DNA from: a virus
Taxonomy: Duplodnaviria > Heunggongvirae > Uroviricota > Caudoviricetes
Length of the DNA: 8,654 bases
Reading direction: 5' to 3' (one strand)
IMG/VR virus record: IMGVR_UViG_2563366830_000015
The notes under the pieces are model-generated. The model saw only the letters and a list, made by a program, of their open reading frames with translations. It was not told where the DNA came from and searched no databases. Shown piece after piece: positions 1 to 8,537 of the stretch (the stretch's first letter is position 1; each line of letters starts with the position of its first letter). The position numbers were made by a program, and so were the translations under genes.

Positions 1-291
1 GCCGGTGGTTTTTCTGCCACCACGATGCTGTTTTCACTGGGGGCCAGCATGATACTGGGCGGTGTGGCCCAGATGCTGGCCCCGAAGGCAAAAACACCGG
101 ATTACCGCGCAACGGATAACGGCAGACAGAACACGTACTTTTCCTCGCTGGATAACATGATTGCCCAGGGGAACCCGATGCCGGTGCCTTACGGGGAAAT
201 GCTGGTTGGCTCCCGCCGTATATCCCAGGACATCAGCACCCGTGATGAAGGCGGGGGCGGAAAGGTCGTGGTTATCGGGCGGCAGGGGTAA
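1..291 (+). CDS. I: Tail assembly protein I (lambda gpI-like), C-terminal part; 5' end lies upstream of the window
   Basis: Frame 1 is open from base 1 to TAA at 289-291. The translation (...MLFSLGASMILGGVAQMLAPKAKTP...TDNGRQNTYFSSLDNMIAQGN...VVVIGRQG) matches the C-terminus of lambda gpI as I recall it. It sits directly upstream of J, as in lambda. Confidence 0.85.
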   Translation, partial: AGGFSATTMLFSLGASMILGGVAQMLAPKAKTPDYRATDNGRQNTYFSSLDNMIAQGNPMPVPYGEMLVGSRRISQDISTRDEGGGGKVVVIGRQG

Positions 292-298
292 AAAGAAT

Positions 299-337
299 AA
301 AAAAATCCCGCAGTGATCGCGGACAGGAACTGCGGGA
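299..337 (-). terminator. Candidate intrinsic terminator on the minus strand (8-bp GC-rich stem plus U-tract)
   Basis: Plus-strand TCCCGCAG (306-313) and CTGCGGGA (330-337) form an inverted repeat around a 16-nt loop. On the minus strand the stem is followed by TTTTTTTATTCTTTTT (complement of 305-291). There is no T-tract on the plus-strand side, so it is oriented for leftward transcription. Confidence 0.4.
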
Positions 338-395
338 GAGTTACGAAGATTAAGTGTAAGGAATTATTCTTATATCACGACAAAAAAATTAACGC
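299..395 (-). ncRNA. Candidate ~95-nt antisense small RNA (hypothetical; defined only by promoter and terminator)
   Basis: The region between the predicted minus-strand start (~395) and the minus-strand terminator (337-299) contains no ATG on the minus strand, so no protein can be encoded. It sits in an AT-rich spacer absent from the compact lambda I-J junction as I recall it. No family assignment is possible by eye. Confidence 0.25.
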
Positions 396-401
396 AGAGA
401 A

Positions 402-430
402 ATTATACGCGCCACAGTCAGTTTGTGAAA
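402..430 (-). promoter_or_regulatory. Candidate sigma70 promoter on the minus strand (TTCACA - 16 bp - TATAAT)
   Basis: Reverse complement of 391-430 reads TTTCACAAACTGACTGTGGCGCGTATAATTTCTCTGCGTT. The -10 is a perfect TATAAT (plus 407-402); the -35 TTCACA (plus 429-424) is 5/6 to consensus with a 16-bp spacer. An AT-rich tract lies upstream on the minus strand (plus 431-460). Confidence 0.35.
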
Positions 431-504
431 ATGTGAAGATATTCAGAATTTTTATGCCATTACCGGTTTTAACCAACAGGATTATCGGTGGGCATGAAAG
501 AAAA

Positions 505-537
505 CCCCGGTATCTGCTGATACCGGGGTTTCTCTTT
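505..537. terminator. Bidirectional intrinsic terminator-like hairpin (10-bp stem, 4-nt loop) between I and J
   Basis: CCCCGGTATC (505-514), loop TGCT, GATACCGGGG (519-528) is a perfect 10-bp stem. It is flanked by AAAGAAAA (497-504) upstream and TTTCTCTTT (529-537) downstream, so a U-rich tract follows the stem on either strand. Confidence 0.5.
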
Positions 538-634
538 AGCATGGCAGAAATGTGTTTCATGCTTTTCGGGCGAAGGATATCCGACTTCTGTACGGAATGG
601 CAAGTGGCGGTTAATTTATTCAGGGGAAGGCTGT

Positions 635-3600
635 ATGGGAAAAGGTGGCGGTAAGGCACACACGCCTCGTGAGGCGAAGGATAATCTCAAATCCACGCAG
701 ATGATGAGTGTGATTGATGCGATTGGTGAGGGACCGATAGAAGGTCCGGTGAAGGGACTGCAGAGTATTCTGGTGAACAAAACCCCGCTGACGGACACGG
801 ACGGTAATCCCGTGATACACGGTGTGACTGCGGTCTGGCGTGCCGGGGAGCAGGAGCAGACACCACCGGAAGGCTTTGAGTCCTCCGGTGCTGAAACCGG
901 ACTGGGCGTGGAAGTGACGAAGGCAAAACCGGTGACGCGCACCATTACGTCCGCGAACATTGACCGCCTGCGGGTTACCTTCGGAGTGCAGTCACTGGTG
1001 CAGACCACGTCAAAGGGCGACCGTAATCCTTCCTCTGTCCGGATTCTGATTCAGTTACAGCGTAATGGCCGCTGGGTGACGGAAAAGGACGTCACCATTA
1101 ACGGCAAGACCACCTCACAGTTCCTGGCCTCGGTGATTCTGGATAATCTGCCTCCCCGGCCCTTTAACATCCGGATGGTCAGGGAGACGGCGGACAGCAC
1201 CACGGACCAGCTGCAGAATAAGACGCTGTGGTCGTCATACACTGAAATCATCGATGTGAAACAGTGCTACCCGAACACGGCCATTGTGGGGCTGCAGGTG
1301 GATGCGGAGCAGTTCGGCGGCCAGCAGATGACGGTGAACTACCATATCCGCGGTCGCATCATCCAGGTGCCGTCAAACTATGACCCGGTAAAACGCACGT
1401 ACAGTGGTATCTGGGACGGCAGTCTGAAACCGGCATACAGCAACAACCCGGCCTGGTGCCTGTGGGACATGCTGACTCACCCGCGCTACGGCATGGGAAA
1501 ACGTCTGGGGGCGGCGGATGTGGACAAGTGGGCGCTGTATGCCATCGGGCAGTACTGCGACCAGACGGTCCCGGATGGTTTCGGGGGGACCGAGCCGCGG
1601 ATGACCTTTAATGCGTACCTGGCACAACAGCGTAAGGCGTGGGACGTTCTCAGTGATTTCTGCTCTGCGATGCGCTGTATGCCGGTATGGAACGGCCAGA
1701 CGCTGACGTTCGTTCAGGACCGCCCGTCGGATGTGGTGTGGCCGTACACCAACAGCGATGTGGTGGTGGATGATAACGGCGTGGGATTCCGCTACAGCTT
1801 CAGTGCCCTGAAGGACCGGCACACGGCGGTGGAGGTGAATTACACCGACCCGCAGAACGGCTGGCAGACCTCCACGGAACTGGTGGAAGACCCGGAAGCC
1901 ATACTGCGCTACGGACGCAACCTGCTGAAGATGGACGCGTTCGGCTGTACCAGCCGCGGTCAGGCCCACCGTGCCGGACTGTGGGTGATAAAGACCGAAC
2001 TGCTGGAAACGCAGACGGTGGATTTCACGCTCGGGTCTCAGGGGCTGCGGCACACACCCGGTGACATCATTGAAATCTGTGATAACGACTATGCCGGGAC
2101 CCTGACCGGCGGACGTGTCCTGTCCATTGATGCTGCCACCCGCACCCTGACGCTGGACCGTGAAGTGACACTTCCGGAGACCGGTGCCGCCACGGTGAAC
2201 CTGATTAACGGCAGCGGTAAGCCGGTGAGTGTGGACATCACCGCACACCCCGCGCCGGACCGGATACAGGTCAGTACCCTGCCTGATGGTGTGGAGACAT
2301 ACGGGGTGTGGGGACTCTCCCTGCCGTCACTGCGCCGTCGCCTGTTCCGCTGTGTCTCCGTCCGGGAAAACACGGACGGCACCTTTGCCATCACGGCGGT
2401 GCAGCACGTACCGGAAAAAGAAGCCATCGTGGATAACGGTGCCCGCTTTGAGCCGCAGTCAGGTTCCCTGAACAGCGTCATCCCACCGGCAGTGCAGCAC
2501 CTGACGGTGGAGGTGAGCGCAGCTGACGGACAGTATCTGGCGCAGGCGAAATGGGACACGCCGCGGGTGGTGAAGGGTGTGCGCTTCAGTCTGCGCCTGA
2601 CCAGTGGTAAGGGAACGGATGCCAGACTGGTGACCACCGCCATCACCGCAGACACGGAGCACCGTTTCAGCGGCCTGCCGCTCGGGGAATACACCCTGAC
2701 GGTGCGGGCGATAAACAGCTATGGCCAGCAGGGTGAACCTGCCACCACCACATTCCGGATTGCCGCACCGGCAGCACCGTCGCGGATTGAGCTGACGCCG
2801 GGCTATTTTCAGATAACGGCGGTCCCGCGTCTTGCGGTGTATGACCCGACGGTACAGTTTGAGTTCTGGTTCTCGGAAAAGCGGATTGCGGATATCAGGC
2901 AGGTTGAAACCGCAGCCCGCTATCTTGGCTCGGCGCTGTACTGGATAGCTGCCAGTATCAATATCAAACCGGGCCATGATTATTATTTTTACATCCGCAG
3001 TGTGAACACCGTTGGCAAATCGGCATTTGTGGAGGCTGTTGGCCAGCCGAGTGATGATGCATCCGGCTATCTGAATTTTTTCAAAGGAGAGATAGGGAAA
3101 ACCCATCTGGCTCAGGAGTTGTGGACGCAGATTGATAACGGTCAGCTTGCGCCTGACCTGGCTGAAATCAGGACGTCCATTACGGATGTCAGCAATGAAA
3201 TCACGCAGACCGTCAATAAAAAACTGGAAAATCAGAGTGCGGCAATCCAGCAGATACAGAAGGTTCAGGTTGATACAAATAATAATCTGAACAGCATGTG
3301 GGCTGTGAAGCTGCAGCAGATGCAGGACGGACGCCTTTATATTGCGGGTATCGGTGCCGGTATTGAGAATACGCCAGCAGGAATGCAGAGTCAGGTGCTG
3401 CTGGCGGCAGACAGGATTGCGATGATTAATCCTGCGAATGGCAACACAAAGCCGATGTTTGTTGGTCAGGGCGATCAGATATTCATGAACGACGTGTTCC
3501 TGAAACGCCTGACGGCTCCCACCATTACCAGCGGCGGTAATCCTCCGGCATTTTCCCTGACACCGGACGGAAAACTGACCGCTAAAAATGCAGATATCAG

Positions 3601-4108
3601 TGGCAGTGTGAATGCGAACGCCGGGACGCTCAACAATGTCACAATTAATGAGAACTGTCAGATTAAGGGGAAACTGTCAGCCAACCAGATTGAAGGCGAT
3701 ATAGTCAAAACAGTGGGTAAGGCTTTTCCGCGGGACTCCCGGGCACCGGAGCGGTGGCCATCAGGGACCATTACCGTCAGGATTTATGACGATCAGCCTT
3801 TTGACAGGCAAATTGTTATTCCGGCGGTGGCATTCAGCGGCGCTAAACATGAGCGGGAGAATAACGATATTTATTCGTCATGCCGCCTGATAGTACGGAA
3901 AAACGGTGCTGAAATTTATAACCGTACCGCGCTGGATAATACGCTGATTTACAGTGGTGTTATTGATATGCCTGCTGGTCGCGGCCACATGACGCTGGAG
4001 TTTTCTGTATCAGCATGGTGGGTAAATGGCTGGTATCCCACAGCAAGTATCAGCGATTTGCTGGTTGTTGTGATGAAGAAAGCCACTGCAGGCATCACGA
4101 TTAGCTGA
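635..4108 (+). CDS. J: Tail tip / host specificity protein J (lambda gpJ family), 1157 aa
   Basis: Single long ORF with ATG at 635 preceded by GGGGAAGG (624-631) as a ribosome-binding site. An in-frame TGA at 518-520 and no alternative start in between fix the start. The N-terminus ([22 protein letters not shown]...) and long conserved blocks (e.g. [108 protein letters not shown]) match lambda J as recalled. Confidence 0.95.
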
Positions 4109-4127
4109 ATTTTATAACCCCAATACG

Positions 4128-4154
4128 GGCGCCAGAAATGGCGCCTTTTTTATT
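4128..4154 (+). terminator. Intrinsic terminator downstream of J
   Basis: GGCGCC (4128-4133), loop AGAAAT, GGCGCC (4140-4145), followed by TTTTTTATT (4146-4154). Classic GC stem plus T-run, 20 nt after the J stop codon. Confidence 0.7.
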
Positions 4155-4775: not shown

Positions 4776-4879
4776 CAACAGACGCCGATTTATCTTCTGT
4801 AAATATTGTTATGATACGCAGGTTCATCCGCCTTATGGGGTGAACTGCGTTTGAGGAAACGTAAAGTTACACTGTCCTG

Positions 4880-4916
4880 AAGCCCGTGGCGTCACTGCTG
4901 CGGGCTTTTTTTATTG
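4880..4916 (+). terminator. Intrinsic terminator-like hairpin 105 bp downstream of lom, immediately upstream of stf
   Basis: AAGCCCG (4880-4886) pairs with CGGGCTT (4901-4907) across a 14-nt loop, followed by a T-run (TTTTTTTATT, to 4916). The stf ribosome-binding site GGTGGA (4916-4921) and ATG 4927 follow. Confidence 0.6.
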
Positions 4917-4926
4917 GTGGAAAAGT

Positions 4927-7900
4927 ATGACAGTAAAAATTTCTGGCGTGCTTAAAGATGGCACAGGAAAACCAGTACAGAACTGCACCATTGTGCTGAA
5001 GGCCAGACGAACCAGCAGCACGGTGGTGGTGAACACGGTGGCCTCTGAAAATCCGGATGAAGCCGGACGTTACAGCATGGATGTTGAGCATGGCCAGTAC
5101 AGCGTCACCCTGCTGGTTGAAGGTTTTCCGCCTTCACATGCCGGGACCATTACCGTCTATGAAGGTTCCAGACCAGGTACGCTGAATGATTTTCTCGGTG
5201 CCATGACGGAGGATGATGTCCGACCGGAGGCACTGCGCCGCTTTGAGCAGATGGTGGAAGAGGTGTCACGTAACGCCTCCGCGGTTGCACAGAATACGGC
5301 AGCCGCGAAAAAATCAGCCAGCGATGCCAGTGCATCAGCCAGCGAGGCGGCAACTCATGCAACCGATGCTGCAGCCTCAGCACGTGCCGCCAGCACGTCA
5401 GCCGGACAGGCCGCGTCGTCGGCTCAGTCAGCGTCTTCCAGCGCAGGAACGGCATCGACAAAGGCCCGTGAAGCAGCAAAAAGTGCTGCTGCTGCAGAGT
5501 CATCAAAAAGCGCGGCAGCTACCAGCGCCAGTGCCGCGAAAACGTCAGAAACGAATGCCGCAGCATCACAAAAATCGGCAGCCACTTCTGCATCCACAGC
5601 GACCACGAAGGCGTCAGAAGCTGCCACCTCGGCACGGGGTGCGGCGGCCTCAAAAGAGGCAGCGAAATCTTCAGAAACGAATGCATCATCAAGTGCCAGT
5701 AGTGCAGCTTCCTCGGCAACGGCGGCAGGAAATTCCGCGAAGGCGGCAAAAACGTCCGAGACGAACGCTAAGTCTTCTGAAACAGCAGCGGGACAGAGCG
5801 CCTCAGCTGCGGCAGGTTCAAAAACAGCGGCTGCATTATCTGCCAGTGCCGCGTCAACAAGTGCCGGGCAGGCCTCAGCCAGTGCCACCGCCGCCGGAAA
5901 ATCGGCAGAAAGCGCCGCATCATCCGCTTCAACAGCCACAACGAAGGCTGGCAAAGCCACTGAGCAAGCCACTGCAGCAGCGAGGTCTGCTTCTGCAGCA
6001 AAAACCTCTGAAACAAATGCAAAGACTTCAGCAGACAATGCTGCTTCCTCTAAGGCGGCAGCCGCATCGTCAGCCAGTTCAGCGGCGTCATCGGCATCAT
6101 CTGCGTCTGCTTCAAAGGATGAGGCGACCAGACAAGCGTCAGCAGCGAAAGGTAGTGCCACGACAGCAACAACGAAAGCATCAGAGGCGGCAGGCAGTGC
6201 GACGGCTGCATCTCAGAGCAAAGTTGCTGCTGAATCCGCGGCAACGCGCGCCGAGACAGCAGCAAAACGGGCAGAGGATATTGCATCCGCCGTGGCGCTG
6301 GAGGATGCGAGCACGACGAAAAAGGGGATAGTACAGCTCAGCAGTGCAACAAACAGCACCAGTGAAAAGCTGGCGGCAACGCCAAAGGCAGTTAAAACTG
6401 TTAAAGATAGTTCAGTTCAAAAAACTGGCGACACAATGGGAGGGCAGTTAAAAATCAGCACGATAAATGCTCTTCGAATATTCAACCAAGCCTTTGGCCT
6501 TATTTTTAGGCGTTCCGAAGATCATCTTCATCTTATTCCGACTAATGAAGGGGAGGGGGAAAATGGAGACATCGGTTCATTAAGACCATTCTCTATAAAC
6601 TTAAGATCAGGGTTGGTGTCCATCGGTAATGGACTAAAAGTTGGTGGTAGTGTTACTGGTAATTTGACCGGAAACGCAGATACTGCGACCAAGATCAAGA
6701 CAGCACGTAAGATTGGGGGCGTGGCATTTGATGGATCGGCAGATATCAACTTGCCTGGAGTCAACGCTACCGGTAATCAAAACACTACAGGTAATGCTGC
6801 GACCGCCACGAAACTTCAGGCAGCCAGAACGATTAACGGTGTGTCATTTGATGGTAGTGCAAATATCACATTGACCCCTTCAAATATTGGGGCATTGGCA
6901 TTAACTGGAGGGACTCTTTCAGGTGGTTTAACTGCTGCTGGTGAGGTTATTTCAAGGTCAGCAAATGGTCTGCGTATTGCCTATGGCAACTATGGATTCT
7001 TTATCCGAAATGATGGATCAAACACATATTTTATGTTGACAGATTCGGGTAACAGTCTTGGTACGCACAATAGCTTAAGGCCGTTTATAATTAGTAACCA
7101 TACTGGCAATGTTACAATTGCAACTAAATTAAACGCGAGTGGTGGTATCACTGGATCTTTATCGGGTAATGCAAGCACAGCAACCAAATTGCAAACTGCA
7201 AGGACAATTAACGGCGTAAAATTTGACGGCTCGGCAAATATTGAAGCGTTTCCGCCAGGTGTTCCGCTGCCGTGGCCATCAGATACACCACCTGCAGGTT
7301 ATGCGATCATGCAGGGGCAGACGTTTGATAAGGCAGCATATCCGAAACTGGCTATTGCCTATCCTTCAGGTGTTATTCCAGATATGCGCGGCTGGACAAT
7401 CAAGGGCAAACCCGCCAGTGGCCGGGCCGTATTGTCTCAGGAACAGGACGGCATAAAATCGCACACCCACAGCGCCAGCGCATCCAGTACGGATTTGGGG
7501 ACGAAAACCACATCGTCGTTTGATTACGGCACTAAATCCACGAATAACACCGGGGCGCATACGCACAGTCTGAGTGGCTCTACGGGGTCTGCCGGTGTTC
7601 ATACTCATGGTAATGGTATTCGTTGGCCAGGAGGCGGCGGTTCTGCGTTAGCATTTTATGATGGCGGTGGGTTCACTTATGTCCAGAATTCACAGTATCA
7701 AGTAAGCCCGGAGACTTCTTCCTATAGATCGTATTATCAACGTATTCAGACACAGTCAGCAGGTGCTCATACCCACTCGCTGTCTGGTACTGCAGCAAGT
7801 TCTGGCGCACATGCACATACTGTAGGTATTGGTGCGCATACGCACTCCGTTGCGATTGGTTCACATGGACACACCATCACCGTTAACGCTGCGGGTAACG

Positions 7901-8030: not shown

Positions 8031-8111
8031 GCGTAAACTGACCGCCGTATGTAGCCATCAGACGAGAATTGGTAACTTAGACGCCCATCTGATATAGACG
8101 GACATCTAAGT

Positions 8112-8537
8112 ATGGAATTACAGGACTGGCGAAAAGAACCTCGTAAAAACTATTCGAATGAATTCAAACTTCGTATGGTGGAACTGGCATCACAACCTGG
8201 AGCTTGTGTTGCACAGATTGCACGTGAAAATGGCGTCAATGATAATGTTATTTTCAAATGGCTCAGGCTCTGGCAGAACGAAGGGCGTGTTTCGCGGCGT
8301 CTTCCGGTAACGACCTCTTCTGACACTGGCGTTGAATTATTACCTGTAGAAATAACGCCGGATGAGCAGAAAGAACCTGTGGTGGCCATTGCGCCGTCTT
8401 TATCCACTTCCACTCAGACCAGAGTCAGTGCCAGTTCCTGCAAGGTGGAATTCCATCACGGTAACATGACGCTGGAAAATCCATCGCCAGAGCTGCTCAC
8501 AGTGTTGATCCGTGAACTGACCGGGAGGGGAAGATGA
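8112..8537 (+). CDS. tnpA: IS66-family accessory protein TnpA (orf1, helix-turn-helix), 141 aa
   Basis: The ORF sits directly inside the IS left end. The translation (MELQDWRKEPRKNYSNEFKLRMVELASQPGACVAQIARENGVNDNVIFKWLRLWQNEGR...) has the helix-turn-helix-like N-terminus typical of IS66 orf1 proteins. Its stop overlaps the tnpB start. Confidence 0.8.
   Translation: MELQDWRKEPRKNYSNEFKLRMVELASQPGACVAQIARENGVNDNVIFKWLRLWQNEGRVSRRLPVTTSSDTGVELLPVEITPDEQKEPVVAIAPSLSTSTQTRVSASSCKVEFHHGNMTLENPSPELLTVLIRELTGRGR

Follow-up and report, generated by a model that had tools for sequence, protein, structure and literature searches.

The stretch of phage DNA analyzed here, 8,654 nucleotides in length and hereafter called the window, raises the question of why the tail genes I and J of a late operon should be separated by several hundred base pairs of AT-rich DNA, and of what that DNA contains. 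The elements that delimit this interval are the following:

25..291, plus strand: 3' end of the tail assembly gene I homologue, with the stop codon at 289-291, from the list of open reading frames (ORFs).
292..634: I-J intergenic region, 343 bp, consisting of two modules (292-458 and 459-634).
623-630 and 635-4108, plus strand: Shine-Dalgarno sequence GGGGAAGG and the tail tip gene J.

The gap is thus bordered by the stop of the I-like ORF at 291 and by the start of the J ORF at 635, and both assignments could be checked. The ORF at 25-291 aligns with the end of lambda I and with the end of I in enteropathogenic Escherichia coli (EPEC) E2348/69, and the identical DNA is labelled "tail assembly protein" in the RefSeq annotation of CFT073 and other genomes. 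The J product, of 1157 amino acids, contains six J-specific Pfam domains (Ig_J, FNIII-A_GpJ, Ig_J_second, Phage-tail_3, Ig_GpJ_C, and Phage_Tail_Tip) with E-values from 3e-30 to 9e-41, and J is followed in the window by the genes of an Ail/Lom protein, a tail fiber, and an IS3-type OrfA. Positions 200-750 are 100% identical to positions 1364049-1364599 of CFT073 (NC_004431.1) and to many ExPEC genomes, a match to this segment being present in 1855 of 5426 complete E. coli genomes. An initial annotation, made from the letters alone, had pointed to an unusually long AT-rich interval at 292-634 and had opposed to it a compact junction in lambda; both observations hold, since the GC content of the gap is 0.417 against 0.595 in the I part and 0.566 in J (about 0.58 in the flanks), and since the lambda I-J gap measures 60 bp (I end at 15444, J start at 15505; NC_001416). 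The AT-richness is genuine and mostly confined to the left half, the GC content being 0.365 at 292-458 and 0.466 at 459-634.

The reading that we favor, and to which we assign a probability of about 0.6, is that the gap is a composite of three parts: the gene of the small RNA (sRNA) PasB, carried as a moron; a local terminator of sense transcription ahead of J; and a 97-nt leader. Searches against Rfam gave no direct lead to these parts, as no family reached the gathering threshold in the whole window and as, in 200-750 at E ≤ 10, only weak matches appeared (STnc310, CopA, ncr1015, and others), all of them below threshold and driven by the hairpin described below. The PasB family was absent even from the sub-threshold matches, there being apparently no model for it in the copy of Rfam 15 that we searched.

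With respect to the first part, the left 40% of the gap is, as judged from its sequence, the published sRNA gene pasB together with a predicted promoter and a predicted terminator, so that the description of the whole gap as a simple non-coding spacer has to be abandoned. Its elements are:

299..395, minus strand: pasB sRNA gene, window allele, with a predicted start at G 395 and the 3' end in the U7 tract at 299-305.
429..402, minus strand: predicted sigma-70 promoter of pasB (-35 TTCACA at 429..424, 16-nt spacer, -10 TATAAT at 407..402).
337..299, minus strand: predicted intrinsic terminator of pasB (stem 337-329/314-306, then U7 at 305-299).
430..458: AT-rich stretch upstream of the pasB promoter, common to the 343-bp and the 240-bp junction classes.

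The promoter agrees with the consensus at 11 of 12 positions and is the best promoter-like site that the scan found in the window; together with the terminator, it predicts a minus-strand RNA of about 97 nt running from 395 to 299. PasB itself was validated as an Hfq-dependent, prophage-expressed sRNA in E2348/69 (Pearl Mizrahi et al., 2021; PMC8550237), where it spans 83 nt on the minus strand of prophage PP6 (1466343..1466261) and was detected by northern blotting with the probe AATCCCGCAGTGATCGCGGAGCT (PMC8550237, Table S6), and it has been described as located within an operon of genes for phage structural proteins (Zhu, Shabalina and Storz, 2026; bioRxiv 10.64898/2026.05.13.724894). That probe matches the window at 304-323 in 20 of its 23 nt. 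In E2348/69, PasB lies directly after the stop codon of the I homologue (I end at 1466255, J start at 1466496) in antisense orientation, and according to the alignment its position and orientation are those found in the window, in which the annotated 83-nt form would be equivalent to about 299-381. Of the 77 columns in the alignment of the two alleles, 59 are identical.

Among 80 related IMG/VR loci there occur 27 distinct pasB alleles, and the window allele, which is the commonest, falls within the graded series that those alleles form. Both promoter hexamers are kept in all 27. In the alignment of 14 alleles, GCGTTA at the 5' end and the motif AATCTTC/T are conserved and the terminator stem is invariant, seven of its pairs being unchanged in 13 or 14 of the 14 alleles, with a loop of variable length. 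By analogy with the E2348/69 allele, the pasB of the window may be expected to be expressed and to depend on Hfq. The left DNA of the gap, moreover, has the sequence attributes of a moron, namely that it is additional DNA, carries a predicted promoter and terminator of its own, and deviates in GC content.

The same sRNA has very probably been recorded a second time under other names. EcOnc22, EcOnc23, and EcOnc24 were reported from prophages Sp15, Sp14, and Sp11 of E. coli O157:H7 Sakai (Tree et al., 2014; PMC4104026, Table S2), and northern blotting gave a size of about 85 nt for EcOnc22, which was destabilized without Hfq (PMC4104026). By their coordinates the three lie in the 240-bp I-J gaps of the respective prophages, antisense to the tail operon. 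The coordinates of that work are offset by +137 to +146 with respect to NC_002695.2, as calibrated on the single reference sRNA AgvB (AgvB1 being at 1941920-1941981 in Rfam on NC_002695.2 and at 1941783-1941835 in PMC4104026), and upon application of this offset the three Hfq peaks come to lie inside PasB homologues, whose U-run ends are at 2902926, 2676857, and 2166907; the identification of EcOnc22, EcOnc23, and EcOnc24 with PasB depends on this calibration. The hairpin and pasB strings had no match in the supplements of the same publication (PMC4104026). All three Sakai junctions with Hfq peaks are of the 240-bp type. EcOnc54, which we considered as a potential Hfq peak at a junction of the 343-bp type, was discarded on finding that it sits instead in the regulator/antirepressor insert of Sp6, a prophage in which an insertion of espX7 has degraded the I-J region.

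That the gap is a mosaic became apparent from the comparison of gap lengths, which we counted in those 77 of 80 J-related IMG/VR loci that allowed both junction anchors to be located: 41 loci have gaps of 338-344 bp, as in the window, 29 have gaps of 234-253 bp, as in E2348/69 and Sakai, and 7 have gaps of 851 bp. The pasB body is common to the three classes, the left part being variable, and the homology between the 343-bp and the 240-bp classes stops at about position 455-458 of the window, next to which begins the second module:

459..634: right module, comprising a hairpin and the 97-nt stretch before J, present only in the 338-344-bp class.
497..537: symmetric hairpin resembling an intrinsic terminator (A-run 497-504, arms 502-514/519-531, loop 515-518, T-run 529-537).

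The right module is carried by 1446 of the 5426 complete E. coli genomes (27%), including O157:H7, ST131, and CFT073; of 1451 E. coli records, 1442 show at least 99% identity to it, and in 13 phage records the identity is 100%. A blastn search with word size 11 in E. coli genomes and phages returned only copies of at least 95% identity and no diverged relatives. Since the module is nearly invariant, its variation is uninformative on function and covariation is not assessable in it. Its first portion, 459-496, is predicted to form a small stem-loop. In other prophages the I-J site holds sodC or a lipoprotein gene, and the sequences compared indicate that cargo has been acquired repeatedly between the I stop codon and the hairpin, be it the sRNA, sodC, or the lipoprotein gene.

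Regarding the hairpin, the initial annotation had described a perfect 10-bp stem at 505-528 with U-rich tracts on both sides, which is correct and even conservative: beyond the core stem (505-514/519-528, with the loop TGCT) the perfect pairing extends to 13 nt, and pairing of the A-run with the T-run lengthens the stem to 17-18 bp. No other long perfect inverted repeat exists in the 8.6 kb of the window. For the segment 495-540 the fold energies are -27.1 kcal/mol (plus strand; z = -8.4) and -26.0 kcal/mol (minus strand; z = -7.2), values that none of 200 shuffles equaled, and the core stem alone accounts for -19.1 and -18.5 kcal/mol, respectively. On the sense strand a stable GC-rich stem precedes a U-rich tract, as in an intrinsic terminator, and on the minus strand a U-rich tract likewise follows the stem, so that the terminator anatomy proposed for both directions is indeed present. 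The tails, UUUCUCUUU on the plus strand and UUUUCUUUC on the minus strand, are both interrupted, so that the efficiency of termination is uncertain, and the terminator prediction that had been suggested as a check lists the hairpin 497-537 on neither strand. That consensus scan, however, also overlooks the junction hairpin of lambda, and its omission of the present one is likely due to the stem extension that pairs the T-run with the A-run, for which reason we did not count it against the terminator.

The sense side of the hairpin faces the late operon, and pasB, on the other side, is transcribed away from it. For J or for a plus-strand sRNA, the promoter scan gives no plus-strand candidate before position 7432, and visual inspection of 292-634 revealed none either. 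The only minus-strand promoter-like sites that could feed the hairpin from the side of J are two weak ones, at 603..574 and at 3006..2979, the latter occurring at the same place in lambda J. A full-text literature search with the hairpin sequence returned no matches. The genome-wide search for the pattern of the arms found a match in E. albertii that corresponds to the same junction; look-alikes in a Hahellaceae MAG, after 5S rRNA, and in an Oscillospiraceae MAG were attributed to chance instead of homology, and a partial match in NZRM4165 was set aside as a microhomology deletion in a decaying prophage, uninformative on function.

When the junctions of other phages were compared, terminator-like hairpins turned out to be recurrent before J. 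The 60-bp gap of lambda contains, at about 15465-15490, the hairpin AAACCGCC-TGCG-GGCGGTTT, followed by the T-rich tail TGTCATTT; 76 lambda-like loci, with some 30 distinct junctions, all have this stem and a T immediately behind it, and they differ in the loop (G or C) and in the sequence on either side. Four lambda-like loci carry an insert of 477 bp and 37% GC with a plus-strand lipoprotein ORF; it is placed behind the I stop codon and ahead of a variant of the lambda hairpin with a compensated change (AGCCGCC/GGCGGCT) that is followed by TTGTTGTTTATGGAG and then by J. The 240-bp class has an unrelated hairpin, CAGGCAYCC-loop-GGRTGCCTG, and after it TTGTTTTT. In this class one pair appears as C-G (3), U-A (3), or U-G (1) among eight distinct sequences, and 97% of the cells are paired as compared with 35-43% when the partner is slid; covariation among those sequences amounts to the one compensated pair and is not significant against shuffles (117/500). 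In addition, HK544, mEp043, and the Serratia phage Rovert, with gaps of 52, 41, and 45 nt, have a GC hairpin and a T-run just before J; in a Burkholderia phage the genes overlap at this junction and leave no gap. Sense-strand terminator-like hairpins are found, too, in the J-lom and lom-fiber gaps of the window and in the E-FI, J-lom, and lom-stf gaps of lambda.

On the strength of this sequence comparison, a sense-strand terminator-like hairpin before J is a general feature of the I-J junction in lambdoid phages. Such an element is not peculiar to the prophage of the window, given that the 60-bp junction of lambda and four other junction types have one; the alignment with lambda proposed as a check consequently gave a divided result, in that the spacer is absent from lambda, as anticipated, and the terminator element is present there. 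Only on the sense strand is the stem followed by a T-run in lambda and in the 240-bp class, which assigns the conserved function to sense transcripts. The idea that the hairpin shields the sRNA promoter from minus-strand transcription out of J, also put forward initially, finds no comparative support in the hairpins of E2348/69 and Sakai, whose T-run is on the sense strand alone: that is the junction type in which PasB was detected, and its expression is therefore independent of such a shield. Of the junction hairpins compared, only that of the window is, from its sequence, symmetric enough to act both ways.

These elements can be combined in a sequence of events. The pasB gene would have been inserted immediately after the I stop codon as a small moron, antisense to the late operon. 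In the lysogen it would be transcribed from its own promoter at 429..402 and ended by its own terminator, the product acting in trans with Hfq. Any ordinary polymerase that crossed I and pasB in the sense direction in the lysogen would stop at 529-537, with the consequence that J, lom, and the fiber genes would not be accidentally transcribed. In lambda, the Q-modified polymerase that starts from pR' reads through intrinsic terminators; from this established biology we infer that, after induction, such a polymerase would likewise ignore the hairpin and continue into J, and the expression of J through the hairpin is, as had been suggested at the outset, consistent with Q antitermination. The third part would be the 97-nt leader that follows the hairpin and bears the ribosome-binding site of J. 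The symmetric hairpin is probably also able to stop minus-strand transcription leaving J, which we regard as an extra of the window allele and not as a conserved function.

Among the alternatives, the one that survives best, although we consider it clearly less probable than the composite with its local terminator, is that the hairpin is mainly an element of RNA processing or stability, either a block to 3' exonucleases or a point of cleavage by which the stability of the Z-I segment becomes independent of that of the J-lom-fiber segment. Hairpins between cistrons are established determinants of segmental mRNA stability in other operons, and the stem, with its A/U extension, reaches the 17-18 bp mentioned above; furthermore, a terminator would not affect late expression under Q, yet the hairpin is kept in the cargo-free junctions of the lambda type. 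In every version, however, the sense strand continues from the stem straight into a T-run, which is the mark of a terminator and would be needless for an exonuclease barrier. The two roles are mutually compatible.

More doubtful is an alternative in which the right module would be a second minus-strand sRNA gene, of about 70 nt, starting near 567 and using the hairpin with UUUUCUUUC as its terminator. The candidate start site would be:

603..574, minus strand: weak promoter-like site TTGCCA-18-TATCCT, with a 9/12 match to the consensus.

This site and the terminator are in the correct order and spacing; the predicted RNA (497-570, minus strand) folds as a 5' hairpin plus the terminator at -31.6 kcal/mol with z = -6.1; and weak sub-threshold Rfam matches to sRNA families cover the region, in which, as stated, at least 99% identity is conserved in 1446 genomes. 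Against these points, a promoter of only 9/12 is of a kind expected by chance, one scan having found 3 promoter-like sites, two of them those of pasB, versus 0.9 ± 1.0 in shuffles, and another having found 10 versus 6.8 ± 2.7. Moreover, the U-run is broken and thus poor for Hfq binding, the z-score of the fold is due to the hairpin alone, the conservation equals that of the adjoining 5' end of J and so suggests recent spread, our literature search found no published Hfq peak or sRNA at the right module, and no Rfam family reaches threshold there. Inspection by eye also led us to discard, for the right module, a type I toxin-antitoxin system, in the lack of a hydrophobic small ORF with a ribosome-binding site, and a REP or MITE element, in the lack of a REP consensus and of terminal inverted repeats.

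An extension of the composite reading, which we offer as speculation of similarly low probability, concerns PasB as a regulator of its own surroundings. Any late transcript with the same junction contains, in its I-J part, the perfect complement of PasB; together with the adjacent hairpin the sRNA could direct the cleavage or termination of late mRNA before J, of the resident or of a superinfecting related phage, or, conversely, the sense transcripts that end at the hairpin could sponge PasB at the onset of the lytic phase. If PasB did act on late mRNA, the outcome would be antisense immunity or a dosage control of the receptor-binding protein, for which the antisense RNA STnc6030 of the Salmonella prophage BTP1 offers a parallel in principle (PMC7067206).

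It is still less likely that the hairpin and the rest of the right module are a functionless scar of the recombination that assembled the junction. The junction is clearly mosaic, with a sharp break of homology at about 455-458, the right module lacks diverged relatives, and in a decaying prophage a deletion ends within the hairpin; but a scar would not be expected to contain a GC-rich palindrome of 13 perfect base pairs flanked by matching A- and T-runs (z = -8.4), and a hairpin with a T-run occupies the same place in six unrelated junction types. Finally, that the gap encodes a protein is very improbable: the ORFs 313-654 (plus strand) and 375-659 (minus strand) exist mechanically in the ORF list and one phage record annotates a hypothetical protein in the gap, but among 13 near-identical alleles their lengths vary, because of indels in the pasB body, between 0 and 113 and between 44 and 128 amino acids, neither has a Pfam match, and both cross the pasB terminator or the hairpin from GTG starts with no evident ribosome-binding site, all of which agrees with their initial dismissal as non-genuine.

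Returning to the composite of moron, terminator, and leader, its main content, PasB, was already known, and the hairpin would be, from its sequence, an intrinsic and possibly bidirectional terminator at the boundary of a moron. The new points are modest and consist in the recurrence of a junction terminator before J in lambdoid phages and in the repeated occupation of the I-J site by cargo, neither of which overturns the current views of late-operon control. For annotation they have a practical value, as about a quarter of the complete E. coli genomes carry this exact junction, where RefSeq shows nothing and where a divergent allele of a published Hfq-dependent sRNA is located; the pattern of the cargo site, in turn, helps to predict where prophage-borne regulators and virulence genes are to be found.

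Compared with the PasB of E2348/69, that of the window is alike in its situation directly after the I stop codon, its antisense orientation, its promoter hexamers, its size (about 83-97 nt), the terminator stem CCCGCAG/CTGCGGG with U7, and the AATCTTC motif. It differs in its body, which is about 77% identical and has several indels, so its targets may differ from those of the E2348/69 sRNA; the junctions of E2348/69 and Sakai differ, besides, in having a gap of 240 bp with another right-hand module. With the junction hairpins of lambda, HK544, mEp043, and Rovert, the hairpin of the window shares the GC-rich stem-loop and the sense T-run before J, but it has no sequence similarity to them, and its stem is symmetric and of 13 perfect bp versus 8-9. 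It lies 106 nt from the J start, as opposed to roughly 20-35 nt in lambda, Rovert, and HK544, and to mEp043, where the hairpin directly abuts the annotated start of J. We know of no experimental study of the lambda I-J junction hairpin.

The bidirectional intrinsic terminators of E. coli, known from full-length mapping of RNA ends, consist of a hairpin between an A-run and a U-run and are typically situated between convergent genes. The hairpin of the window resembles them in its perfect GC-rich stem, its mirrored A- and U-runs, and its A:U-paired base, and departs from them in that the nearest minus-strand unit, pasB, points away from it. As to the morons of lambdoid phages, such as lom, bor, and the sodC of Gifsy-2 and of the O157 prophages, pasB shares with them the insertion between neighboring genes, a promoter and a terminator of its own, a lower GC content, and, presumably, expression in the prophage; it differs from them in that its cargo is an sRNA, and not a protein, and is encoded antisense to the operon that harbors it (for the moron concept, see the review PMC3594210).

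The space between tail assembly gene I and tail tip gene J proved to accommodate different cargo in different relatives of the window. In seven related prophage loci (L035, L058, L060, L069, L072, L073, and L077) the I-J gap measures 851 bp and contains a Cu/Zn superoxide dismutase gene, sodC, with its own terminator. The lambda-like prophages L096, L127, L136, and L138 have an I-J insert of 477 bp at 37% GC:

L035, ~540-1067, minus strand: sodC, 175 aa, Pfam Sod_Cu, E = 3.9e-32
L096, 796-1134, plus strand: predicted lipoprotein ORF, 112 aa, beginning MNKTILFCTIIALTGC

In the 851-bp gaps the body of pasB, the gene for an Hfq-dependent sRNA, lies 3' of sodC on the same strand. Both promoter hexamers of pasB (-35 and -10) have been lost there, and PasB could come only from the sodC transcript, through read-through or processing. 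The predicted lipoprotein gave zero matches in a Pfam search, and its ORF is followed on the 3' side by a variant form of the lambda junction hairpin; the gene is further cargo at the same I-J site. For Sakai, Table S2 of Tree et al. (2014) gives positions that differ from the current RefSeq NC_002695.2 by an offset of ~+137 to +146 nt at 1.94 Mb (for example, NC_002695.2 1941920-1941981), for which any mapping of the EcOnc sRNAs onto the current assembly must be corrected.

The terminator-like hairpin upstream of J is cut by a deletion in one decaying prophage and has chance look-alikes elsewhere. L087 (NZ_CP032791.1 2132931-2134843, reverse complement), from a decaying prophage of strain NZRM4165 whose J is frameshifted, carries a deletion that fused mid-gene I to window position 523, within the hairpin, via GGTTT microhomology. 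The 12-nt arms AACCCCGGTATC / GATACCGGGGTT, followed by a T-run, recur in a MAG of the Hahellaceae, an unrelated marine bacterium (L088 6564-6591, L091 2752-2779), directly 3' of the 5S rRNA; here an identical terminator stem has arisen independently, by chance. Within the tail-end part of the late operon, each larger gap examined contained a terminator-like hairpin:

Window, 4127-4146, plus strand: strong sense-strand terminator-like hairpin with T-run, J-lom gap
Window, 4879-4908, plus strand: the same, lom-tail-fibre gap
Lambda, 18920-18935 and 19612-19633, sense strand: counterparts of these two hairpins
Lambda, 7163-7180, sense strand: the same kind of hairpin, 3' of E

Further features of the window lie farther downstream of the I-J gap:

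Window, 8075-8090/8096-8111: imperfect inverted repeat, near the window end
Window, within 8075-8537: IS3-family OrfA, HTH_Tnp_1, E = 4e-12
Window, 3006..2979, minus strand, antisense within J: promoter-like site TTCACA-16-AATAAT, 10/12

Because the inverted repeat and the OrfA directly follow the tail fibre gene, they suggest that an insertion sequence occupies the place expected for the tail fibre assembly gene. As to the antisense site, lambda (NC_001416 17882..17855) has it too, at the same relative position in J, which agreement could reflect either a conserved antisense promoter or a mere by-product of conserved coding sequence.
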